Assembly: GCA_044220955.1 (NCBI GenBank)
Contig: JBGAQA010000090.1
Location: 1 to 26,418 of the forward strand
From: Sandaracinaceae bacterium
GTDB taxonomy: Bacteria; Myxococcota_A; Polyangia; Polyangiales; Sandaracinaceae
Length of the DNA stretch: 26,418 nt
Reading direction: 5' to 3'
A program made the translations under genes and the position numbers. This document shows, in pieces, positions 1,454 through 16,882 of this stretch. The notes under the pieces were generated by a model. The model did not search any database. It had not been told where the DNA came from and was given only the letters and a program-made list of their open reading frames with translations. The stretch's first letter is position 1. Each line of letters begins with the position of its first letter.

Positions 1454-2341
1454 TCAGGCGGCGGCGAGCTCTGCGCTGCTCGACTGCGCGGGGAGCGCGG
1501 GCGGCTTGCTCAGTCCCGTGACCAGCCCGAAGAACCAGTCGGTCACGAACGTCGGGACGAGCGCCATGAGCACCGGGCCCATCGCGTTGTAGAAGGGCGC
1601 GACGTAGCGTGCGCGCGGCAAGCGCGAGACGGCCGCGCTCTCGATCGCCCGGCATACGCTCGCGGGGCCGACGGCGAAGCGCTCCGAGCCCTTCCCGGCC
1701 TCGGCGACGCGCTGCAGGATCGGCGCGTAGGGTGAGCGCGGGTCGGCGGCGTACTTCTCGACGTAGGCCATGGTCGTCGCGGTGAAGTCGCTCTTGATGT
1801 AGCCGGGCTCGATCACCGACACCTTCACCCCGAAGCCGCGCAGCTCCATGCGGAGCGCGTCGCTCATCGCCTCCACGGCGTACTTGGTCGCGTGGTAGGC
1901 GCCGCCGAGCGGGAAGGTCATACGACCGCCGACGCTCGAGACGTTCACGATGCGGCCGCTCCGCCGCTCGCGCATCGCGGGGAGGAACGCGCGCGTGACG
2001 GCGAGCAGGCCGAACACGTTGGTGTCGAACTGCGCGCGCACGTCGGCGTCGCTCAGCATCTCGAGCGGACCGGCGAGGCCGTAGCCGGCGTTGTTCACGA
2101 GCACGTCGAGCCCGTAGCCGTTCGTGAGGCGATCGACCTCGGCCTTCGCGGTGTCGATCGAGCTCTGGCGGGTGACGTCGAGGGCGAGCGCCTCGATGCC
2201 GGCGGCGCGCAGCTCGGCGAGGGCCTTCTCGTTGCGGCCGGTGCCGATGACGCGATGGCCCCTGGACCGAAGGTGGAGGGCGGCAGCCTTGCCGATGCCT
2301 GCGGTCGCGCCGGTGACGAGGATCGTGAGTGAGCGGGCCAT
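1454..2341 (-). CDS. Short-chain dehydrogenase/reductase (classical SDR)
   Basis: TGATAGIG (TGxxxGIG), NNAG, catalytic Ser in NVSS and YHATK (YxxxK). RBS AAGGAG upstream of the ATG. Confidence 0.95.
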   Translation of the reverse strand: MARSLTILVTGATAGIGKAAALHLRSRGHRVIGTGRNEKALAELRAAGIEALALDVTRQSSIDTAKAEVDRLTNGYGLDVLVNNAGYGLAGPLEMLSDADVRAQFDTNVFGLLAVTRAFLPAMRERRSGRIVNVSSVGGRMTFPLGGAYHATKYAVEAMSDALRMELRGFGVKVSVIEPGYIKSDFTATTMAYVEKYAADPRSPYAPILQRVAEAGKGSERFAVGPASVCRAIESAAVSRLPRARYVAPFYNAMGPVLMALVPTFVTDWFFGLVTGLSKPPALPAQSSSAELAAA

Positions 2342-2386
2342 GGTCGTTCTCCTTCTTTCTATCGAGCGATACGGGTTTGGTCGGAC

Positions 2387-2403
2387 TGAATGTTCATTCC
2401 ACG
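2387..2403. promoter_or_regulatory. Putative TetR operator upstream of the SDR gene
   Basis: TGAATGTTCATTCCACG, 16/17 identical to the site at 3045-3061. AT-rich near-palindrome about 46 bp upstream of the SDR start. Confidence 0.7.
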
Positions 2404-2452
2404 AACAGGGACAGAAAAGCCGGTGACTGGCGGACGCCAGACACCGGCGGGC

Positions 2453-3055
2453 TCAGGCGCGCAGCGCTTCCCAGGTCAGCAGCTCGAACCGATCGAGCAC
2501 CTCGGGCGAGAGGTCCAGCATCCCCTGCCGGGCGCAGCGGATCAGCTGGATGAGGCCGCCCCACACGAGCGAGATGAGCAGCGCCGGATCTTCGTCGCGC
2601 GTGGCCTTGAGGATGCGGCTCGCGCCCAGGATCGACTGCGCGAGGGTGAGCACCCGGTTCTCGAGAGCGCGGCTCTCGTCGTCGAGATACGGCGCGTGGT
2701 GGTGTAGCTCGAGAAAGTCGAATGCCTGCGGGTTCTTCTGAGCGAAATCCACAGCGCGTCGGAAGACATGAGACCACTGGGCGCGGGTCGTCTTCTCCAC
2801 CGGGAAGTCCGCGCTGACGCCGTCGATGAAGGCCATCTTCCAGCGGCGGTAGAGCGCGTTGACGAGCGCCTCCTTGCTGGCGAAGTAGCGGTAGATCGTG
2901 CCTGCGCCGACGCCCGCTCGCTCGGCGACGAGGGGGACGGGCGTGCCGTGGAACCCCCGCTCGGCGAAGAGCGAGAGCGCGGCGTCGAGGATGCGCTCGC
3001 GCTTGTCGCTCGGCTCGCTGCGGTGCGTCGCGGTGGCCACGGTATGAACGTTCAT
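2453..3055 (-). CDS. TetR/AcrR family transcriptional regulator
   Basis: RERILDAALSLFAERGFHGT...VAERAGVGAGTIYRYFASKEAL is a TetR HTH. The start is either ATG 3055 or GTG 3040. Confidence 0.92.
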   Translation of the reverse strand: MNVHTVATATHRSEPSDKRERILDAALSLFAERGFHGTPVPLVAERAGVGAGTIYRYFASKEALVNALYRRWKMAFIDGVSADFPVEKTTRAQWSHVFRRAVDFAQKNPQAFDFLELHHHAPYLDDESRALENRVLTLAQSILGASRILKATRDEDPALLISLVWGGLIQLIRCARQGMLDLSPEVLDRFELLTWEALRA

Positions 3056-3189: not shown

Positions 3190-3204
3190 CGGCACGCACG
3201 TTGC
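3190..3204 (+). promoter_or_regulatory. Sigma54 (-24/-12) promoter
   Basis: CGGCACGCACGTTGC: GG at 3191-3192 and GC at 3203-3204 with the exact N10 spacing. It matches the YGGCAC-N5-TTGC consensus and lies 14 bp before the ATG at 3219. Confidence 0.7.
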
Positions 3205-3218
3205 GGAAGCGCTGCGAC

Positions 3219-4250
3219 ATGCGGTCCTTCATCCCCCTCGCGGCCCTCGTCCTGCCTCTCTCCTCCTGCGCGCCGCACGCGGCCTCGCGCGGCGCGGGCG
3301 CCGACCCGGCCTATGCGCTGGACGCGTACTGCGCGATCGCCGGGACGGAGGGGCTCTTCGACTGGACCGGCGGCGCGCTGGTGGCGTGCCCCGGCCTCGC
3401 GTCCGGGTCGGGCGAGGCGGAAGAGGATGGCAGCGGCTGCGGCGTCGCGACGATCGACGCGAGCGGGCGCGCGCACGAGACGACGTTCGGCGACGCGCGC
3501 GGCGCGCAGGTGCTAGCCGACGGTCGCGTGCTGGTCTGGGGTTTCGACGGCTCGCTCACGCTGCGCAGCGGCAGCGCGCCGACGCGGGTGATCGCCGAGG
3601 TCGCGCTCGATCCCTGGCTCGACGCCGCGAGCAACCGCATCGCTTACGTCGCGCCCGCCGCCGGAGCGACGGCGATCGAGCCCGGCGACGACCGCCGCGT
3701 CGTCGTCTACGACGTCGCGACGCAGACCGAGCTCGAGGTGCTCGCCGACGCGACGGCGTCGTCGCCCGTCGTGATCCCGGGCACCGACGAGGTCCTCTAC
3801 GTGTCGAGCGCCGCCGGGACCGCCGCGGTCTTCCGTGCGAGCGCGCGGGTGGCTGCCGCCGACCCGACACCCGACCCCTGCGAGGGCGGGCGCACCGGCG
3901 ACCCGAGCGATCCGGCGAGCGAGTGCACGCCGGCCGACTCGAGCACGACGTTCGTGCAGATCACCAACCTCACGCCCGAGATCCCGCAGACGAACCTGCC
4001 GCCGTTCGGCCGGCAGCACCTCTTCGTGGGCGAGGGCGACACGCTGCGCCTCGTCTTCGCGGCCCTCGTGCCGACCGAGTCGGGCGCGCTCGCGAGCGAG
4101 GTCTTCGCGCTCGACCCGCGCACCGGCGAGGCCGAGGATCTCGGTCCGGGCAGCTTCCCGCAGCGCGGCGCCCGGGGCTCGGTGCTCGCGCGCACGGGCG
4201 AGAGCAGTTGCGTCGCCGTCCAGTACCTCGGCGCGGGAGCGACGCCATGA
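3219..4250 (+). CDS. Hypothetical lipoprotein, probable TolB-like beta-propeller
   Basis: MRSFIPLAALVLPLSSC signal/lipobox. Blade-like segments (LDPWLDAASNRIAYV, SSPVVIPGTDEVLYVS, VFALDPRTGEAEDL). The stop overlaps the next ATG (ATGA). Confidence 0.7.
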   Translation: MRSFIPLAALVLPLSSCAPHAASRGAGADPAYALDAYCAIAGTEGLFDWTGGALVACPGLASGSGEAEEDGSGCGVATIDASGRAHETTFGDARGAQVLADGRVLVWGFDGSLTLRSGSAPTRVIAEVALDPWLDAASNRIAYVAPAAGATAIEPGDDRRVVVYDVATQTELEVLADATASSPVVIPGTDEVLYVSSAAGTAAVFRASARVAAADPTPDPCEGGRTGDPSDPASECTPADSSTTFVQITNLTPEIPQTNLPPFGRQHLFVGEGDTLRLVFAALVPTESGALASEVFALDPRTGEAEDLGPGSFPQRGARGSVLARTGESSCVAVQYLGAGATP

Positions 4251-6589
4251 GCCGCGCGCGCATCGCCGCGGCCCTGGCCGCCGTCCTCGCCCTGGCCTGT
4301 CAAGCGCAGCCCGGCGACTTCGCCGTGGCCGCCGAGGGCGACATCCACTCGGAGTGCGCGACCGGCGCCACGACCCGGGGCATCGACGTCTCGGCCTGGC
4401 AGGGCGCCATCGACTGGCGCCGCGTCGCCGCGAGCGGCGTGGAGTTCTCGTTCATCCGCGTCTCGGACGGCACGCACTCGATCGACAGCCGCTTCACGCA
4501 GAACTGGTCGGGCGCCCGCTCGGCCGGCGTGCTGCGCGGCGCCTACCAGTTCTTCCGCGCCGGGCAGGACGTGCGGGCGCAGGCCAACATCATGATCGAC
4601 GCCCTGCGCGCCGATCCGGGCGAGCTCGCGCCGGTCATCGACGTCGAGGGCGAGTCGATCCAGGGGCGCTCCGCGGCGCAGGTCGTGGCGGCCGTGCGCC
4701 AGTGGATCGAGCTCGTCGGCGCGGCGACCGGCACGACGCCGATCATCTACACGGGCACCTACGTCACGGGCTCGAGCTCGCCGATGTACTCGTCGAACCC
4801 GCTCTGGGAGGCGGCCTACTTCCTCGACTACACGTCGTCGCACTGCCCTCGGATCAACGACAACTGGGATCGCTGGACGTTCTGGCAGTACTCCGACCGC
4901 GGTCACGTGCCCGGCATCACCGGCAACGTCGACATGGACGTGTTCAACGGCACCAGCGAGGAGCTCGCGGCCTTCGCGGGCGGTCGCGCGCCGATGCCGC
5001 CGCCGCCGCCGACGGCCGGCTCGGGCGACCTCTCGTACCCGACCGACGCGCACGTCGTGAGCTCGTACGTCTCGCACCGGCAGGGGAGCGGCCTGGTCCG
5101 CTACGACTGCGGCTCGATCTCGCGCTCCGGGCACAAGGGAACGGACTTCGCCGTGCCGCGCGGGACGCCGGTGCACGCGTCGGCGCCGGGCGAGGTGATC
5201 CGCGCGGTCGACGGCTGCGTGGAGGGCGCGTCGTCCTGCGGCGGCCAGTTCGGCAACCACGTGATCATCCAGCACGCGAGCGGTCGTGCGACCCTCTACG
5301 CGCACATGACGAACGGCTCGGTGCGCGTGCGCGCCGGTCAGCGCGTCGAGTGCGGGCAGGAGCTCGGCCTCTCGGGCAGCACGGGCCACTCGACGGGGCC
5401 GCACGTGCACTTCGAGGTCCGCGATGGCGTCACGGGCATGGGCAACTACTACGACCGCACCCCCACCGATCCCTTCGGCGGCCACTGCTCCTCGCAGCCG
5501 CACGATCTCTGGGGCGACGCGTGCCGGCCGACGGAGGCGCGCGACGACGCGCGCTACGTGTCGAGCACCTACCCGCGCCAGATCACGGTGACGCCGGGCC
5601 AGACGATCACGCAGGCGTGGCGCCTCGAGAACACGGGGACGACGACGTGGACCGACGAGGAGCACTACGCCCTCGTGCGCACGAGCGGCCCGAGCTTGAT
5701 GGGGCTCGCGCGCGCGGCGGTGCCGTCCCGCGTCGCCCCGCACGCGCAGATGCGCTTCGAGGTGACCTTCCAGGCTCCGACGGAGCCGGGCAGCTACGTC
5801 GTCACCTACCAGATGTCGCACGGCACGAGTCAGTTCGGCGACGTGGTCCAGCTCTCGATCCGCGTGCCGGGCGCGGCCTCGTGCCACTCGGCGACGCTCG
5901 GCACGAACGTGCCCTCGGGCACCTGCGTGCAGGTCGCCTACGCCGGCTGCGGGCAGTCGAGCTGCGGGTGGTACGCGTGCAACGGTGGCGCGTGGACCTG
6001 CACGAGCCCGAGCGCGTGCACCGGCGAGAGCCACCCGAACGAGGCGTGCGCGCCGCCGCCTCCGCCGCCCTCGAGCGGCGCGTGCGAGACGCTCTCGTGC
6101 GGCGACTGTGTCGCGACGCCGGACTGCACCTTCTGTCCCGGCAGCGGGCAGTGCGTCGCCACGGCCGATGCGGGCAGCTGCGCGGGAGGCACGACGAACA
6201 GCGTCGGGGCGTGCGACGAGTGCCACCCCGTCGGGTTCACCTGTACGGACCGCTTCGACTGCTGCGGCGCGACGACGAGCTCGGACATCCAGTGCATCCA
6301 GGGCTTCTGCGAGGACACGACGATGTGCGAGATGAACGGCGACACGTGCGCGCCGGGCGACACCAACACGCACTGCTGCGGTCTCGGTCTCTGCGGCCAG
6401 GACACCGGCGGGAGCTGGGAGTGCTGCCTCGCGCCGAACAACCAGTGCGCGTCCGACGCCGACTGCTGCGGGTTCGAGCGCTGCACCGGCGGCGTCTGCC
6501 AGGCGCAGGCGGTCGGGCAGAGCTGCATGAACACGCAGGAGTGCGACGGCGCGAGCTACTGCCTCGACGATCACACCTGCGGGTTCTGA
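4247..6589 (+). CDS. Multidomain peptidoglycan hydrolase lipoprotein: GH25 muramidase + M23 peptidase + NBR1-like Ig domain + Cys-rich tail (780 aa)
   Basis: Signal MSRARIAAALAAVLALAC. GH25 motifs GIDVSAWQG, GAYQF, IDVE (DxE), WQYS, VDMD. M23 motifs HKGTD (HxxxD), YAHM, STGPHVHFE (HxH). Ig-like PGQTITQAWRLENTGTTTW. 38 Cys in the C-terminal ~235 aa. Confidence 0.9.
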   Translation: MSRARIAAALAAVLALACQAQPGDFAVAAEGDIHSECATGATTRGIDVSAWQGAIDWRRVAASGVEFSFIRVSDGTHSIDSRFTQNWSGARSAGVLRGAYQFFRAGQDVRAQANIMIDALRADPGELAPVIDVEGESIQGRSAAQVVAAVRQWIELVGAATGTTPIIYTGTYVTGSSSPMYSSNPLWEAAYFLDYTSSHCPRINDNWDRWTFWQYSDRGHVPGITGNVDMDVFNGTSEELAAFAGGRAPMPPPPPTAGSGDLSYPTDAHVVSSYVSHRQGSGLVRYDCGSISRSGHKGTDFAVPRGTPVHASAPGEVIRAVDGCVEGASSCGGQFGNHVIIQHASGRATLYAHMTNGSVRVRAGQRVECGQELGLSGSTGHSTGPHVHFEVRDGVTGMGNYYDRTPTDPFGGHCSSQPHDLWGDACRPTEARDDARYVSSTYPRQITVTPGQTITQAWRLENTGTTTWTDEEHYALVRTSGPSLMGLARAAVPSRVAPHAQMRFEVTFQAPTEPGSYVVTYQMSHGTSQFGDVVQLSIRVPGAASCHSATLGTNVPSGTCVQVAYAGCGQSSCGWYACNGGAWTCTSPSACTGESHPNEACAPPPPPPSSGACETLSCGDCVATPDCTFCPGSGQCVATADAGSCAGGTTNSVGACDECHPVGFTCTDRFDCCGATTSSDIQCIQGFCEDTTMCEMNGDTCAPGDTNTHCCGLGLCGQDTGGSWECCLAPNNQCASDADCCGFERCTGGVCQAQAVGQSCMNTQECDGASYCLDDHTCGF

Positions 6590-7665
6590 TGCGGCGTGTC
6601 CTGGCTCTCGCTCTCGTCTCGGCGTGCGGATGCGCGAGCCCGGGGATCGACGCGCGGCGCGGCGCGGACGCGGCCCCCGCCGACGCGCGCGCCCCGGAAC
6701 CGGACGCGCGGGACGCATGGACCCTCGTGGACGCCGTCCCGGCGGTCGATGGGCCCGTGCCCGTCGACGCCGCGAGCCCTCTCGACGTCGCGCCGCCGCT
6801 GCCCCCGGCTCGCTCCTGCGCGTACCGCTCGACCACGTTCGACGCCGCGATGCTCGAGCTCGACGCGGACCCGAGCTCGGCCACGCGCCTGCGCTTCGAG
6901 GTCGCGGACGTGCCCGCCCCTGCGCTCGTCGATCATGCGACGCTCGTCTTCGAGAGCTACGACGCCGATCACCCGGGAGACGAGGGCGTCGTCACCCTCA
7001 ACGGAGCCGGCCCGTTCCCCATCCCTGCGATGAGCGCCTGGGACAACGCCGCCGGCACGGGCAGCATCGACGTGACCGGGACGCTCGTCCCCGGGACGAA
7101 CCGGATCGAGTTCGGGCCGGGGCCCCTGCCACGCAGCTTCTTCCGCATCGGGGCCGTGCGGCTCGACCTCGAGGTGAGGATCGACGCGTGCGCGCCGCCG
7201 CCGACGTCGGCGCCCGTCGAGCGGCGCCTGCACTTCCACGAGGGGACCTTCACGAACCGCGCGACCTGGGTGGTGCCCTGTCCCCCGGGCCACCCGCGCT
7301 TCGCGGCGATCCGCGACTACGCCTTCACGGCGAGCGGCGCCGAGCACGAGCCCACCGACTGCGATGGGCTCTATCGCGCCGGGAGCGGCGAGCGGGGTAC
7401 GGCGACGTACGTGTTCGACGCAGTGACCGCCGCGACCTACGGCATCTACGTCTCGTTCCGCACGAGCGGCAACCGCAACCCGCGCGGCGCCCTCTTCGTG
7501 GTGAACGGGGAGGAGCGGCGCATCGATCAGGTCGACGCGTCGGGCGCATTCCGCGAGGTGCTCTGGGGCGAGCGCGCCCTCGCCGGCATGGTGACCGTCG
7601 TGCTCGACTCGTCGCGGGAGGCCGAGAGCGACTCGGTGACCGAGATCCGCCTCGTCCCTCGTTGA
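6589..7665 (+). CDS. Hypothetical lipoprotein with two beta-sandwich domains; C-terminal domain golvesin/xanthan-lyase CBM-like
   Basis: ATG overlaps the upstream stop (TGATG). MRRVLALALVSACGC lipobox followed by an Asp/Ala/Pro linker. C-terminal YGIYVSFRTSGNRNPRGALFVVNG..RRIDQ resembles the golvesin/Xly C-terminal domain. Confidence 0.7.
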   Translation: MRRVLALALVSACGCASPGIDARRGADAAPADARAPEPDARDAWTLVDAVPAVDGPVPVDAASPLDVAPPLPPARSCAYRSTTFDAAMLELDADPSSATRLRFEVADVPAPALVDHATLVFESYDADHPGDEGVVTLNGAGPFPIPAMSAWDNAAGTGSIDVTGTLVPGTNRIEFGPGPLPRSFFRIGAVRLDLEVRIDACAPPPTSAPVERRLHFHEGTFTNRATWVVPCPPGHPRFAAIRDYAFTASGAEHEPTDCDGLYRAGSGERGTATYVFDAVTAATYGIYVSFRTSGNRNPRGALFVVNGEERRIDQVDASGAFREVLWGERALAGMVTVVLDSSREAESDSVTEIRLVPR

Positions 7666-9805: not shown

Positions 9806-12800
9806 ATGGGTCCGATGCGACACCTGCTTCGATCGCCTGCGCTCGCGCTCCTCGTCGCCACCTTCGCCGCGGCGAGCGCCGGATGCGACTGCGCGGGCGG
9901 ACCGACTCCGGGGACGTGCACCACGTCGACCGACTGTCGCGCCGGGCAGAGCTGCATCGACGGCCGCTGTCGCGCGACCCCCGACGCGGGCCCGCTGCCC
10001 GACGCCGGCCCGGGGAACGACGCGGACCGCCCCGACGCCGTGGTCGTCCCGGACACGGGTCTCGACGGCGGGCCGACGTGCGCGGGCGTGACGTGCGATC
10101 CCGGCGAGCGCTGCGCGATCGTCGCCGGCGCACCCTCGTGCGTCCCGAACACGTGCGCCGACCTCGCGTGCTCCGTGACGGAGCGCTGCGAGCCCGCGCC
10201 GGTCGGCATGGGCAACGTCTGCGTCGACATCTCGTGCACCGACGCGATCGACTGCGCGCCGGACGAGTACTGCAACGGCACCATCTGCGTCGCCGACCTC
10301 TGCACCGCCGGGGTGGGCACCTGCGACGCGATGAGCGTGAGCGTGTGCGTCGACGACGGGAGCACGTCCACGGTGCGCTACACGTGCGGCAGCACGACCC
10401 ACTTCACGAGCAGCTGCACGACCGACGCACGCGGCGCCTACTGCCCCTGCGAGGACGACTGGGACTGCCCCGCCAACACGCGCTGCGAGGTCGGTCGCTG
10501 CGAGGGGACGGGCGTCGCGCCGACCTGCCGCCTGGCGCCGCAGCCCTTCACCAGCGTCCTTCCGACCAACGAGATCACCTGGGGCGGCGTCAGCGCGGCC
10601 ATGCACGACGCCGTCGGCCGGCCCTTCCCGCCGAGCGCGCAGGTGTCGGCCACGCCCGTGGTCGTCAACCTCGACGACGACACCGGCGACGGTCGCATCG
10701 ACGAGCTCGACATCCCCGAGATCGTCTTCCAGACGTACTGCGGCACCGACGTCTCGACGAACGGCGCGCTCCGAGCGATCCACGGCGGCGGCACGCACCG
10801 CGGCGAGGACTTCTTCGCCGTGATGGGCCCCACGGTCTGGCACGAGGGCGACCCGCTCCCGGCCACCACGACGTGCGCGAACGGCGACCTCAACTCGACG
10901 TCGGGCATCGCTGCCGGGGATCTCGACGGCGACGGCGTGCCCGAGATCGTGGCGATCACGGAAGGGGACGGCGTCGCGATCCTGTCGAACACCGGCACGC
11001 GCATCGCCACGTCCGCGACCGCCCTGTGGCCGGCGGGGTACGTCGACCCGACGCCCGCGATCGCCAACCTCGATCACGCCGGGCTGCCCGAGATCGTCGT
11101 CGGGCGTGTGGTCCTGACGATCCGGCGCGATCCCGGCATGCCCATCGTGTTCCAGGACACGTTCTCGGGGGCGCTCATGAGCGGACAGAACGGCCAGGGG
11201 CCGATCTCGTGCCTCGGTGACGTCGCCGGCGGTGACGAGCTGGAGGTGGTCGCAGGCAGCACCGTCTACCGTCTGCCCACACCGCCGGCCGGCGTGACGC
11301 GACGCTCGATGTGCGCCGTGGGTGACACGAGCAACTTCTGCGGCGGTCGCCTCGACGTCGTGTGGGACGGGCAGACGGTCAACGGAGCGACGCTCGTCCC
11401 GACGGCCCAGCGCGACGGATTCTGCGCGCTCGCCGACGTGCTGGGCGTCGATCCCGTCGCTGCGCCGGGCCCGACGAACCCGCTCGACGGGCAGCCGGAG
11501 GTCGTGCTCGTGGCCAACGGCTACCTCGTCGTCTACTCGGGCGACACCGGTGTGCGCCGTCGCTTCATCAACCTCGGCGCAGGCACGGACGGCGGGGCGC
11601 CGAACGTGGACGACTTCGACGGCGACGGGTTCCCCGAGGTCGGGACCGCGTTCGGCCTGCGCTACATCGCGATCGATCTGCAGGCGCCGACGGCAGCCTG
11701 CCCCGCGTGGCCGAACGCCTTCAACGACGCGATGACCGGTCTGCAGGGCAACCCGATGCGGACCCCCCCGGCCACGGCATGCACCGCGGACGCCGACTGC
11801 GGCGACCCTCAGTTCGCGTGCAACGAGACCATCGGCCGGTGCGTGTGCTTCCACAACGGATGGATGCGCATCACGGAGGACGACTCGAGCCGCGTCACCG
11901 GCTCCACGGTGTTCGACTTCAACGGCGATGGTGGCGCCGAGATCGTCTACAACGACGAGTGCTACTTCCGCGTCTACGACGGGGTGAACGGTACGGTCCT
12001 GTTCCGCGGACCGAGCTCGAGCCGCACCCGCGTGGAGAACCCCGTCGTCGCCGACGTCGACAACGACGGGAACGCCGAGATCGTGTTCCCGAGCAACAAC
12101 GACGCGAGCGCGTGCAGCGTGGGCGAGACGAACAACGGCATCGAGGTCTGGGGCGACGCGAGCGACTCCTGGGTCAGCGCTCGCAGGATCTGGAACGAAC
12201 ACGCGTACCACGTGACCAACGTGCTCGAGTCGAGCGGTGTGCCGTCGTACGAGCCACAGAGCTGGCTGACCTACGCCGGCCGCTCGTACGACACGTACCG
12301 TTCGCAGCCGCGCAGCGCGGGCGTCGCGCCCGATCTCGTGATCGATCGCGTGCAGGCGAGCTCCCCGGACGCGGCGTGCGGGACGCTCGGCACGATGCTC
12401 GACATCGTCGTCCGCGTCGTGAACCGCGGTGACCTCCGCGTCGGCCCCGACGTGATGGTGGCCTTGTACGGGGAGTGGCCGACCGTTCCCTTGAGCGAGG
12501 CGCTGCACGCCGACGCGCTCGGCACTCCGCTGAGCGCCCGTCTCGGGACGACGCTCGAGCCCGGCGCCTCGACGCTGGTGTCCGTGCGCTACGTGGCCGC
12601 GAACAACTCGCCCGGAGTCCTGCCCGCCATGATCCGCGTGGTCGTCGACGACGCGATGGCCGAGCGCGAGTGCGTCGAGACCAACAACACCGTGTCGATC
12701 GCGGTCGATCCGGGCTCGACCGCCCCGGATCTCGCGGTGGACCTGGGCGCGACCGGTGGCGTGTGTCCGGCGCAGACCTTCGTCACCACGATCGAGAACG

Positions 12801-13069
12801 TCGGCTCTGCGGCGGCGAGCGACGTCGTCGTTCGCTACTACGTGGGCGACCCGGCCGCGGGTGGACTCGCGATCCACGACGAGGTGTTCCCCGGCGTGCT
12901 GGCGCCAGGCGCGTCGATGATGCGCACGGTCACCATCAACCCCTTCCCGATGGGGCCCCTCTCGATCGTGCACGCGGTCGTCGATCCCGACGACGTGGTC
13001 GCCGAGTGCAACGACGGGAACAACGACGATCAGACGGCCAATCGCGTCGGCTGCCAGGTCGTGATCTGA
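9806..13069 (+). CDS. Large Cys-rich lipoprotein with FG-GAP/VCBS (integrin-alpha-like) beta-propeller and two CARDB domains
   Basis: Signal ...LLVATFAAASAGC (ATG 9806 or 9815). Cys repeats CxxxxDCxxxxxCxxxxC. Ca-binding loops DLDGDGVPEI, DFDGDGFPEV, DFNGDGGAEI, DVDNDGNAEI. CARDB signatures PDLV...VVNRG...ECVETNN and PDLA...IENVG...ECNDGNN. Confidence 0.88.
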   Translation: MGPMRHLLRSPALALLVATFAAASAGCDCAGGPTPGTCTTSTDCRAGQSCIDGRCRATPDAGPLPDAGPGNDADRPDAVVVPDTGLDGGPTCAGVTCDPGERCAIVAGAPSCVPNTCADLACSVTERCEPAPVGMGNVCVDISCTDAIDCAPDEYCNGTICVADLCTAGVGTCDAMSVSVCVDDGSTSTVRYTCGSTTHFTSSCTTDARGAYCPCEDDWDCPANTRCEVGRCEGTGVAPTCRLAPQPFTSVLPTNEITWGGVSAAMHDAVGRPFPPSAQVSATPVVVNLDDDTGDGRIDELDIPEIVFQTYCGTDVSTNGALRAIHGGGTHRGEDFFAVMGPTVWHEGDPLPATTTCANGDLNSTSGIAAGDLDGDGVPEIVAITEGDGVAILSNTGTRIATSATALWPAGYVDPTPAIANLDHAGLPEIVVGRVVLTIRRDPGMPIVFQDTFSGALMSGQNGQGPISCLGDVAGGDELEVVAGSTVYRLPTPPAGVTRRSMCAVGDTSNFCGGRLDVVWDGQTVNGATLVPTAQRDGFCALADVLGVDPVAAPGPTNPLDGQPEVVLVANGYLVVYSGDTGVRRRFINLGAGTDGGAPNVDDFDGDGFPEVGTAFGLRYIAIDLQAPTAACPAWPNAFNDAMTGLQGNPMRTPPATACTADADCGDPQFACNETIGRCVCFHNGWMRITEDDSSRVTGSTVFDFNGDGGAEIVYNDECYFRVYDGVNGTVLFRGPSSSRTRVENPVVADVDNDGNAEIVFPSNNDASACSVGETNNGIEVWGDASDSWVSARRIWNEHAYHVTNVLESSGVPSYEPQSWLTYAGRSYDTYRSQPRSAGVAPDLVIDRVQASSPDAACGTLGTMLDIVVRVVNRGDLRVGPDVMVALYGEWPTVPLSEALHADALGTPLSARLGTTLEPGASTLVSVRYVAANNSPGVLPAMIRVVVDDAMAERECVETNNTVSIAVDPGSTAPDLAVDLGATGGVCPAQTFVTTIENVGSAAASDVVVRYYVGDPAAGGLAIHDEVFPGVLAPGASMMRTVTINPFPMGPLSIVHAVVDPDDVVAECNDGNNDDQTANRVGCQVVI

Positions 13070-13991: not shown

Positions 13992-15554
13992 GTGAGGATC
14001 GCGCTCCCCCTCGCGATCCTGGGGATCGCGCTCGGGTGCGGCGGCACACCCCCCGGCCGGGCGACGGTCGCTCCTTCGCCCGCCACGTGCGAGCGTCAGG
14101 CCCCTCGGCGCGGCCCTCTCGTGCGTCTCGCGCCCGCCGAGTACGACGCGACCGTGCGCGACCTGCTCGGCGACGACTCGCAGCCCTCGTCGGCGTTCCC
14201 GCGCGAGCCGGAGGCGCTCGCGCCCGACGGCGCTCCGGTCTCGCCCGTCCTGGCGGGAGCGTATCTCCGCGCAGCCGAGACCCTCGCGGAGCGGGCGTCG
14301 GCGGAACGGCTCGAAGCGATCGCCCCCTGCGTGGCCGGGGGCGACGAGAGCGACGCTTGCGTGCGCACGTACGTCGCCGCGTTCGGGCGCCGCGCGTACC
14401 GGCGACCGCTCACCGATGCGGAGGTCGAGCGCTTCGTGGCGATCCACCGAGAGGGCGGCGTTCGCCTGGTGCTCGTCGCGATGCTCGTGTCACCGCACTT
14501 TCTCTACCGCGTCGAGCATGCGGGTGTGCTCTCGATGTACGAGCGCGCGAGCCGGCTCAGCTACCTGCTCTGGGGCTCCATGCCCGACGAGACCCTGTTC
14601 GCGGCCGCCGGCGCGGGCGCGCTCGGAACGGCCGACGCGATGGAGGTCGAGGCGCGCCGCATGCTCGCCGACCCGCGTGCACGCCCGCAGCTGGTGCGCT
14701 TCGTCTCGAGCTGGCTCGAGCTCTCGCTCGACGACGTGACGAAGGACGACGTTGCGTACCCCGAGTGGCGGCCCGAGCTCGCGCGGGCCATGCGGGACTC
14801 GTCGTCACGCTTCGTCGAGCACGTCCTGTTCGAGTCGACCGGTACGCTCGACGAGCTCTTCCGGGCGCCCTACGCCTTCGTCGACGACTCGCTCGCGCCG
14901 ATCTACGGCGTGCCGCCGCCGGGCTCGGACACGCTCGTCCGCGTCGCGCTGGATCCTCGCGCGCGGGCCGGGATCTTCACCCAGCCGGCGTTCCTCGCAG
15001 CGCACGCGAGCGCCGATGGAAGCTCACCCGTCCTGCGGGGGCGCGCGCTGCGCGAGCGGGTCTTCTGCCAGGCGCTGCCGGCCCCGCCCGACGACGTGAG
15101 GCCGCTCGCGCCCGTCGGACCGGCGCGTCCGACCACGCGCGCACGCTTCGAGGCGCACGTCGAGGACGCAGGATGCGCGGGTTGCCACACGCTGATGGAC
15201 CCGCTGGGCTTCGCGCTCGAGCACTTCGACGGACTGGGCCGCTTCCGGGCCGACGAGAACGGCGAGCCGATCGACGCCGGCGGGGAGATCTTCGGAACCG
15301 GCGCGACCGACGGACCCGTGGACGGCGCGATCGCCCTCGCGGGAGCCCTCGCGAGCAGCCAGGACGTGTCGCGCTGCGCCATGGAGCAGGCGTGGCGCTT
15401 CGCGCTGCGGCGCCCCTCGGAGGAGGCGGACGCCTGCGATCGTGAGGCGCTCGCCGGGTCCTGGGCTCGATCGGGCGGCGAGCTGCGCGAGCTCCTGGTC
15501 GCCATCGTGCGCTCGGACGCTTTCGTCGCGCCGGGACCGGAGCTGCCGCGATGA
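13992..15554 (+). CDS. DUF1592/DUF1588/DUF1585-family (PSD) lipoprotein with a c-type heme motif
   Basis: Lipobox IALGC. Family motifs RL...EYDATVRDLLG, RRAYRRPL, SPHFLYR, ASRLSYLLWGSMPD, SSPVLRG, and CAGCH (CxxCH, 15174-15188) followed by MDPLGFALEHFDGLGRFR. Confidence 0.9.
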   Translation: MRIALPLAILGIALGCGGTPPGRATVAPSPATCERQAPRRGPLVRLAPAEYDATVRDLLGDDSQPSSAFPREPEALAPDGAPVSPVLAGAYLRAAETLAERASAERLEAIAPCVAGGDESDACVRTYVAAFGRRAYRRPLTDAEVERFVAIHREGGVRLVLVAMLVSPHFLYRVEHAGVLSMYERASRLSYLLWGSMPDETLFAAAGAGALGTADAMEVEARRMLADPRARPQLVRFVSSWLELSLDDVTKDDVAYPEWRPELARAMRDSSSRFVEHVLFESTGTLDELFRAPYAFVDDSLAPIYGVPPPGSDTLVRVALDPRARAGIFTQPAFLAAHASADGSSPVLRGRALRERVFCQALPAPPDDVRPLAPVGPARPTTRARFEAHVEDAGCAGCHTLMDPLGFALEHFDGLGRFRADENGEPIDAGGEIFGTGATDGPVDGAIALAGALASSQDVSRCAMEQAWRFALRRPSEEADACDREALAGSWARSGGELRELLVAIVRSDAFVAPGPELPR

Positions 15555-16882
15555 GGCGGCGGGCGCTGCTCGCGGGCCTCGGGCTCGGCGCGCTCGGGCT
15601 CGCCGGCCTCTCCGTCTCGGGGCCGCGCCTCCGCGTGCACGCGCAGCAGGGAGCGCGCCTGCGCTTCGTGGTGATCGTCACGCCCTGCGGGACGATCCGG
15701 AGCGCCTGGGGGACGCGCCGGAGCGACGCCGACTTCGGTCTCGGAGAGATCCTGGCGCCCTTCGCTCCGCTGCGCGACCAGCTCCTCGTGCTGCAGGGGA
15801 CACACATGCGCGTCGCGCGCACCGGCCCCGGGAGTGGGCACCAGCAAGGCATGGGGGCGCTCCTCACCGGAGAGCCGCTACTGCCAGGCGCGTTCTGCGG
15901 TGGCAACGACTGCTTCAACGGGACGAGCGGCTGGGCGGCGGGGCCCTCGATCGATCAGAGGATCGCCGAGGGGGCGGCGGGCGGCGCGCGCTTGCGTTCG
16001 CTCGAGCTCGGCGTGCGCCTCGGCGGCGCCAACAACCGTCATCGCGTCGCGTACCGCGGCGCGGACGATCCGCTGCCGCCCGAGGACGACCCCGCCCGCG
16101 TCTACGAGCGTCTGTTCGCGGGCAGCGGGACCGACCTCGAGCTGCTGCGCAGGCGTCGCGCCGAGCGCGCCAGCGTGCTCGATCTCACGCGCGCCGAGCT
16201 CGCCGACCTGCGGGGTGACCAGGACGCGCAGGGACGCCTGGCGCTCGACGCTCACCTCGACTCGATCCGCGACGTCGAGCGCGAGCTCGATCGCGAGGCC
16301 GAGGCCAGCGCGTGCGCGCCGCCCGCGCTCGGCGAGGCGTTCGACTCGCACGAGAGCCGCCGCTATCCGCAGAGCTCCCGTCTCACCCTCGACCTGCTCG
16401 CCACCGCGCTCGCCTGCGACGCGACGCGCGTCGCCACGGTGGTCTACTCCGGCGCGGCCAGCATGCAGACGTTCCGCTGGCTCGGCGTACGCGAAGCGCA
16501 CCACACGCTCTCGCACGAGCCCGACTCGAACGAGGAAGCGCGCGAGAAGCTCGTGCGGATCGACGCCTGGTACGCGGGGGAGATCGCGCGCTTCGCGCAG
16601 CGCCTCGCGTCCATCCCCGAGGGCGAAGGCACGCTGCTCGACCACACGATCGTCCTCTGGGGCAACGAGCTGTCGAAGGGGAACCTCCACTCGCACGAGA
16701 ACATGCACTTCGTCGTCGTGGGCGGTTCGCGGGCGGGCTTGGGTCTGGGCCGCTGGCTCGATCTCGGAGATCGCCCCCACGCCGATCTCCTGCTCACCCT
16801 CGCCAGGCGGATGGGGTGCACGCTCGATACGTTCGGCGCCGAGGGCTTCTGCACGGGGCCGATCGACGCGCTCGGCGGGTAG
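15551..16882 (+). CDS. DUF1552 domain protein (Tat-exported, His-rich)
   Basis: Twin-Arg signal MRRRALLAGLG. Motifs SIDQRIA, HLDSIRDVE, CDATRV, AHHTLSH, TLLDHT, GNLHSH. ATGA overlap with the upstream DUF1592 gene, its usual partner. Confidence 0.9.
   Translation: MRRRALLAGLGLGALGLAGLSVSGPRLRVHAQQGARLRFVVIVTPCGTIRSAWGTRRSDADFGLGEILAPFAPLRDQLLVLQGTHMRVARTGPGSGHQQGMGALLTGEPLLPGAFCGGNDCFNGTSGWAAGPSIDQRIAEGAAGGARLRSLELGVRLGGANNRHRVAYRGADDPLPPEDDPARVYERLFAGSGTDLELLRRRRAERASVLDLTRAELADLRGDQDAQGRLALDAHLDSIRDVERELDREAEASACAPPALGEAFDSHESRRYPQSSRLTLDLLATALACDATRVATVVYSGAASMQTFRWLGVREAHHTLSHEPDSNEEAREKLVRIDAWYAGEIARFAQRLASIPEGEGTLLDHTIVLWGNELSKGNLHSHENMHFVVVGGSRAGLGLGRWLDLGDRPHADLLLTLARRMGCTLDTFGAEGFCTGPIDALGG

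Follow-up and report, generated by a model that had tools for sequence, protein, structure and literature searches.

In a 26,418-nt stretch of genomic DNA from a Sandaracinaceae bacterium of the phylum Myxococcota (contig JBGAQA010000090.1 of assembly GCA_044220955.1; this whole stretch is hereafter the window), three consecutive open reading frames (ORFs), here called genes 1, 2, and 3, encode a TolB-like beta-propeller, a modular peptidoglycan hydrolase with an M23 peptidase domain, and a putative lipoprotein with folds resembling carbohydrate-binding modules (CBMs). We found that genes 1 and 2 belong to a recurrent pair: across the phylum, homologs of the propeller gene directly precede M23 genes of one subfamily, and a structure model predicts that the propeller binds the M23 domain. 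We propose, at somewhat better than even odds (probability about 0.55), that the propeller is a separately encoded cap that prevents the M23 enzyme from attacking the cell's own wall while it is being exported. Linkage and fold were observed, binding was modelled, and inhibition is a prediction.

Propeller genes directly precede M23 genes of one subfamily

A first-pass annotation of this DNA had described three genes joined by two stop/start overlaps and centered on an enzyme with GH25 and M23 domains, and all of these elements were confirmed in the sequence. The three ORFs are open, with GC contents of 0.92-0.97 at third codon positions in an assembly of ~7.5 Mb and 72.5% GC, and their stop and start codons overlap as ATGA between genes 1 and 2 and as TGATG (6587-6591) between genes 2 and 3. 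Such overlaps by themselves are weak evidence of linkage: on the 12 longest contigs of the genome, 147 of 869 same-strand neighbours share a 4-base overlap and 31 of 869 a 1-base overlap.

Comparison across genomes was far more informative. All 23 propeller loci of the family have an M23 gene either next to the propeller gene (18) or after one small gene (5), and strong gene 1 homologs and the 8-cysteine domain of gene 2 are both present in 19 of 30 published family genomes and both missing in the remaining 11. A profile search of the phylum, covering 400 genomes with five candidates scored per genome, yielded 33 matches outside the window. In 26 of these an M23 gene lies directly downstream; the seven exceptions are six generic PD40-repeat proteins and one orphan. 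In the family of Archangium violaceum, 11 propeller matches in 10 of 61 genomes were all paired with an M23 gene, and the closest eight were paired with single-domain M23 proteins of 212-216 amino acids (aa). Searching the phylum with the Myxococcus xanthus propeller gave a match in one of 251 genomes, a sample that apparently missed the Myxococcaceae.

The partner M23 domains have in common a loop with two cysteines before the GN motif (the Cys loop). A profile of this Cys-loop M23 domain matched 88 places in 44 of 121 genomes of the order, with a patchy distribution and up to five copies per genome. Setting aside 14 of them (nine family loci already counted, three from the source genome itself, and two unpublished) left 74 loci, 62 of which carry a propeller homolog directly upstream; in none is it elsewhere in the locus. 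All 62 pairs overlap by 4 bases, in frame, as compared with the 147 of 869 neighbours genome-wide, and in paired loci the M23 model begins a median of 32 residues after the start codon. As a control, we inspected 80 broadly sampled M23 loci, drawn from among the matches listed by a generic-motif M23 scan. Only three had a propeller upstream, and these three score high on the Cys-loop profile. In the source genome, a propeller accompanies all three Cys-loop M23 genes and none of the 11 other M23 genes. The first-pass annotation had suggested gene 1 as a dedicated partner of the hydrolase, and its position directly upstream across the phylum, together with the predicted binding described below, bears this out. 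The gene-neighbourhood check that it had proposed for gene 1 gave the expected outcome, with homologs that consistently precede M23 genes; gene 3 is not conserved beside hydrolases in the loci examined.

Further observations concern individual pairs. The two other pairs of the source genome (G000:C82:3-2230 and G000:C234:37171-39128) both show the 4-base overlap and, by eye, MYXO-CTERM-like tails. In genome G030, one contig ends inside a hydrolase gene (L041) and another starts in a hydrolase tail and continues with a second pair (L042), probably a tandem duplication. A record titled Enterobacterales (L133) contains a typical propeller and M23 pair in myxobacteria-like DNA, and its label may be wrong.

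Gene 1 encodes a TolB-like propeller that is not TolB

No Pfam or NCBIfam match was found for gene 1. Its structure model is a beta-propeller with a mean predicted local distance difference test score (pLDDT) of 82, as the first-pass annotation had supposed, and the top structural matches of the model are TolB structures (Z 16.3 and 15.9, root-mean-square deviation (rmsd) 3.4 and 4.0 Å over 225 and 227 residues). The best sequence-profile match is likewise TolB. The likeness to TolB of the Tol-Pal system lies in this fold. We rejected gene 1 as a true TolB since the model is a single propeller without the N-terminal alpha/beta domain and the protein has no TolB family match. Gene 1 further differs from TolB in its context, with no tol-pal genes recognised by Pfam among 30 ORFs of the window, and in its sequence, with 11-14% identity, and many members of its family are partial propellers of 150-260 aa. 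These short homologs retain the blades that bear a conserved G-x-A motif. The protein collection lists one relative of gene 1 under Sandaracinus amylolyticus, and homologs in Myxococcus xanthus, Corallococcus, and Stigmatella carry the annotation "TolB family." At present, the genes are annotated only in this way or as hypothetical.

A complex model predicts binding at the Cys loop of the M23 domain

Prediction of complexes among the three proteins had also been suggested in the first-pass annotation, and for genes 1 and 2 it gave a predicted interaction. The model, which combined gene 1 and gene 2 residues 263-605, reached an ipSAE score of 0.82, while the best control scored 0.00. The mark used for calibration was reached by 116 of 157 solved pairs and two of 215 mismatched pairs, and is rough here, with our own alignments used. 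The runs share at least 84% of contacts, and the pLDDT of the partner is at least 77. The best contacts join M23 loop residues 321-337 to the propeller G-x-A motif and nearby residues. The propeller further contacts G295, K297, H381, T383, G384, and the Zn ligand H388, as well as the immunoglobulin-like (Ig) and 8-Cys domains. The predicted binding site thus comprises the Cys loop of the M23 domain and the rim of its groove. The model supports binding but cannot tell an inhibitor from a helper or confirm groove occlusion.

A second M23 subfamily has a different partner

A second M23 subfamily has a partner of ~140-180 aa, for which we found no convincing Pfam match. Among 30 loci (34 rows), 24 were new (within the range L275-L299), and the small partner lies directly upstream in 22 of these and a propeller in none. 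Conversely, the small partner was found at none of the 74 Cys-loop M23 loci. Four hydrolases have M23 domains of both types, and in each case both partner genes precede the hydrolase gene; the partners therefore follow domains, not genes. There is one partner family per M23 subfamily. The source genome has its own copy of the small partner with the second M23 subfamily (G000:C243:33832-35882).

The M23 domain is the constant element of a variable hydrolase

Gene 2 encodes a GH25 domain (PF01183; residues 46-224, E 5e-38, 131.7 bits) with its D132-V-E134 motif and D47 intact, an M23 domain (PF01551; residues 295-393, E 7e-27, 94 bits against a cut-off of 28.7) with intact HxxxD and HxH motifs, and an NBR1-type Ig domain (residues 441-540, E 8e-15) that the first-pass annotation had not named. 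Beyond residue 545 the protein contains 38 cysteines. A MYXO-CTERM tail (TIGR03901/TIGR03382) was sought on the window enzyme and not found, and seven of 11 hand-picked tails of partner enzymes elsewhere exceed the MYXO-CTERM cut-off. Pfam and NCBIfam gave no type VI or type IV secretion system (T6SS or T4SS) targeting domain in gene 2, whose N-terminus by eye is a hydrophobic signal. All three genes encode hydrophobic N-termini ending in a cysteine. The earlier claim of a lipobox cysteine in each protein stands, by eye, for genes 1 (LSSC) and 3 (VSAC), and gene 2 (ALAC) fits only loosely.

Across the pair loci, the M23 domain may stand with GH25 (two genera), with an unassigned domain, with an RlpA-like insert that is weak and scores below the cut-off, with a second M23 domain, or alone. 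Judged by these domain assignments, GH25 is a swappable add-on, and the dual GH25 and M23 layout, which the first-pass annotation had placed at the core of the module, is not the core. The coordinates of all features are given in Table 1.

Table 1. Features of the propeller-hydrolase locus in the window
Feature	Position	Strand	Basis or remark
Sigma54-type -24/-12 motif	3190..3204	+	Putative promoter; spacing conserved in window and five congeners; sigma54 domain in genome
Gene 1: TolB-like beta-propeller, putative lipobox Cys17, cognate partner of M23 domain	3219..4250	+	343 aa; fold, linkage, complex model
ATGA stop/start overlap	4247..4250	+	4-base overlap likewise in 62/62 paired loci tested
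Gene 2: exported modular peptidoglycan hydrolase, GH25 - M23 - NBR1-type Ig - Cys-rich tail	4247..6589	+	780 aa; Pfam, sequence; activity predicted
GH25 muramidase domain, D47, D132-x-E134	4382..4918	+	Swappable; among pair loci examined confined to genera g1 and g12
Cys-loop M23 peptidase domain, H296-x3-D300, H386-x-H388	5033..5530	+	Constant element of pair
Loop V321-N337 with C324 and C331, predicted main propeller docking site	5207..5257	+	Complex model
NBR1-type Ig domain	5567..5866	+	Pfam
Unassigned ~60-aa domain, 8 conserved Cys	5876..6061	+	Co-occurs with long propeller form in family
Cys-rich tail, no MYXO-CTERM match	6062..6586	+	Sequence, profile
Gene 3: putative lipoprotein, two CBM35/CBM6-like jelly-roll domains	6589..7665	+	358 aa; local neighbour outside conserved unit

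Several related hydrolases were noted in passing. At L048:5531-6115, GH25 is replaced by an unassigned domain of ~195 aa, as it also is at L041, L043, L045, L046, and L047. This domain has a lysozyme-like motif by eye only, and the N-terminal copies of L045, L047, and L048 had no match in Pfam, PDB sequences, or PHROGs. The hydrolase gene at L043:5651-7946 is frameshifted at the start of its M23 domain, through sequencing error or decay. The 8-Cys domain, a candidate wall-binding module, is also found on the second M23 subfamily, there as tandem copies (L081, L082, L083, L084). One clade of MYXO-CTERM-type proteins (L062, L063, L065, L079) combines M23 domains lacking Zn motifs with Golvesin_C domains and is propeller-coupled. 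Three other GH25 proteins of the source genome (on G000 contigs C275, C111, and C229) have differing C-terminal modules, no common upstream partner, and, by eye, MYXO-CTERM-like tails.

A putative sigma54 promoter precedes gene 1

The -24/-12 motif reported by the first-pass annotation is present (CGGCACGCACGTTGC) and is the sole match of its type in the window; eight of 100 shuffles yield one. A GGCA(C/T)-N5-TTGCG element lies 28-29 nt 5' of the ATG in the window and in all five congeners, with the GG-N10-GC consensus of sigma54 promoters at a conserved position, and a sigma54 DNA-binding domain is among those that the genome encodes. The motif is thus conserved in the genus, and a sigma54 promoter is the putative reading. 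From its spacing, transcription is predicted to start 2-3 nt before the gene 1 ATG, which would give a near-leaderless transcript, and the genes show no obvious Shine-Dalgarno sequence. A search for a sigma70-like promoter found none, and the one terminator-like match lies inside gene 2. Upstream, a divergent TetR regulator and a short-chain dehydrogenase occupy window positions 1454-3055, and four congeners show the same arrangement 5' of gene 1.

Gene 3 lies outside the conserved unit

For gene 3, no Pfam or NCBIfam match was found. The CBM-like domain described by the first-pass annotation appears in the structure model as two predicted jelly rolls (pLDDT 69), with CBM35 as the best match (Z 11.4, rmsd 2.7 Å, 120 residues aligned). 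The CBM35/CBM6 assignment comes from this fold match and Atlas leads without Pfam support, and sugar binding is predicted only. The gene 3 query matched nine of 60 relatives, two of them at the N-terminal linker only, and with this query no homolog was found in any of the five congeners, whose genomes are 81-97% complete and which have other genes 3' of the hydrolase in place of gene 3. Ten loci with gene 3 homologs were examined, and none has an M23, GH25, or propeller gene; likewise, none of the pair loci scanned contains a gene 3 homolog. On this distribution gene 3 is a passenger, and the conserved unit consists of two genes, not three.

Two further loci lie downstream in the window: a gene for a large exported protein with FG-GAP repeats and CARDB (9815-13069), and a DUF1592/1588/1595/1585/1587 gene followed by a DUF1552 gene (13992-16882).

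Discussion

M23 enzymes commonly carry inhibitory pro-regions (PMC9662197), for MYXO-CTERM proteins folding in the periplasm comes first and type II export second (PMC11980579), and there are known wall-hydrolase inhibitors that are lipoproteins encoded upstream (PMC6536674). In the mechanism that we propose, both chains would cross the inner membrane by Sec, and the disulfide-rich enzyme would fold beside the cell's own peptidoglycan. The propeller would take the place of a pro-region, apparently absent from most of these M23 proteins, and, bound to the M23 domain, would hold the enzyme inactive until it is outside the periplasm. Released at or beyond the surface, the enzyme might then break down foreign wall, GH25 serving as a second blade peculiar to certain lineages. 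By capping the groove, a coupled partner would solve the problem of self-damage, as Tsi1 and X-Tfi do for injected hydrolases. A role in predation is plausible given the export signals, the patchy multi-copy distribution, and the swapping of domains. We give even odds to a broader proposal, in which separately encoded M23 inhibitors occur phylum-wide as two unrelated families, which each go with an M23 subfamily of their own and were gained one domain at a time, and would act as trans pro-domains permitting safe folding and export.

Several findings weigh against the capping proposal. The profiles were seeded from linked pairs, and counts across kin are not independent. Twelve of the 74 Cys-loop M23 loci have no adjacent propeller, one of them being cut 476 nt upstream; two of the 12 are weak matches and ten are intact enzymes in genomes with another paired copy. 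At one locus (L038) the propeller is accompanied, up to the contig end, by the second M23 type alone, and another has a propeller without M23 (L087). At eight loci in two clades (L034, L036, L040, L049; L062, L063, L065, L079), the propeller is kept with an M23 domain that lacks Zn motifs. GH25 has no partner gene of its own. In the complex model, the lowest-error contacts are on loop 321-337 rather than at the zinc, and interface columns are barely more conserved than others (0.42 vs. 0.38).

The eight loci with a dead M23 domain are among the facts that would fit the main rival, in which the propeller serves as a chaperone (pilot) dedicated to folding or export and binds the Cys loop without inhibiting the enzyme. 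The position of the best contacts on that loop and the strict gene coupling suit such a role as well, and the myxobacterial protein SitB, encoded by an upstream accessory gene, raises toxin delivery (PMC8546572). We nevertheless consider a chaperone unlikely, though a serious contender, since groove residues and a Zn ligand are contacted in the model too, an unrelated partner family takes the same position in the second M23 subfamily, and a dead M23 domain may still bind the wall and need masking. Stoichiometric coupling would also suit an activating or tethering subunit, which would open the Cys loop or keep the enzyme surface-bound; the loop is at the groove, where such loops shape M23 specificity (PMC9662197), and both window proteins bear a putative lipobox. 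Ten intact Cys-loop M23 genes without an adjacent partner and the many enzymes with their own MYXO-CTERM anchor make this improbable.

Less probable still is a pair that remodels the cell's own wall during division, gliding, or development, with the propeller as a regulator and no prey involved. The sigma54-type motif does suggest regulated expression, and no result here bears on prey. However, the patchy and multi-copy occurrence (44 of 121 genomes of the order, up to five copies), the swapped catalytic add-ons, the surface-sorting tails, and the separate ordinary M23 genes without partners in the source genome all argue against housekeeping on the own wall. The first-pass annotation had envisaged a three-lipoprotein complex with gene 3 as its glycan-targeting subunit, in keeping with the 1-base overlap of genes 2 and 3 and the CBM-like folds. 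We rejected this complex, which is very improbable given that gene 3 was not found in the five congeners, that its homologs stand apart from hydrolases and propellers, and that the pair loci examined have none.

The pair of propeller and M23 enzyme resembles several known systems but differs from each. In Pseudomonas aeruginosa, Tsi1, a partial propeller, blocks the catalytic site of the T6SS effector Tse1 (PMC3391265); there, too, a periplasmic propeller-type partner is encoded with a peptidoglycan peptidase. Tse1, however, is an NlpC/P60 enzyme injected by the T6SS, whereas the enzyme here is of the M23 type and carries a signal peptide of its own, its partner is TolB/PD40-like, and inhibition is no more than predicted. 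The X-Tfe/X-Tfi pairs of Xanthomonadales (PMC6536674) likewise place a lipoprotein partner gene upstream of a modular wall hydrolase, with M23 among the effector domains, but these effectors are T4SS substrates, while the enzyme studied here appears to be Sec-exported and its relatives either carry MYXO-CTERM tags or are free single domains. M23B enzymes with cis pro-regions (LytM, lysostaphin, LasA, ShyB, Csd3; PMC9662197) have the same catalytic fold, Zn motifs, and need for latency; in contrast, most paired M23 proteins start right after the signal peptide, and the candidate latency factor is a separate gene. SitB-SitA-SitI (PMC8546572) is also a myxobacterial lipoprotein enzyme system with an upstream accessory gene, but SitA toxins carry C-terminal nucleases that act in the cytoplasm, and gene 2 encodes no nuclease. 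An exported partner gene adjoins the gene for a periplasm-acting hydrolase, and the pair thus has an effector-immunity layout, yet by its predicted delivery features it is not a member of the T6SS, T4SS, or Sit systems.

We found no description of the propeller and M23 pair in open PMC and bioRxiv text, a scope that excludes subscription papers and bioRxiv supplements. Many M23 genes have been noted in genome bins of Polyangiales, with a role in lysis presumed without test (PMC11821767). MXAN_6494, an M23 gene whose expression differs between prey (PMC10196010), could not be tied to this family.

These findings bear on how myxobacteria safely export wall-lytic enzymes. Whereas the section on latency in PMC9662197 describes only same-chain pro-regions, they supply candidate partners from two families, with a loop at which binding is predicted. 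The minimal version of the pair, an M23 protein of ~215 aa with a propeller of 288 aa, occurs in cultured Myxococcaceae, and the propeller in strains of Myxococcus xanthus, which makes the proposal directly testable; the partner might also ease expression of these enzymes. If the proposal is true, a Gram-negative predator could let wall-lytic enzymes fold next to its own wall and then export them without self-harm.

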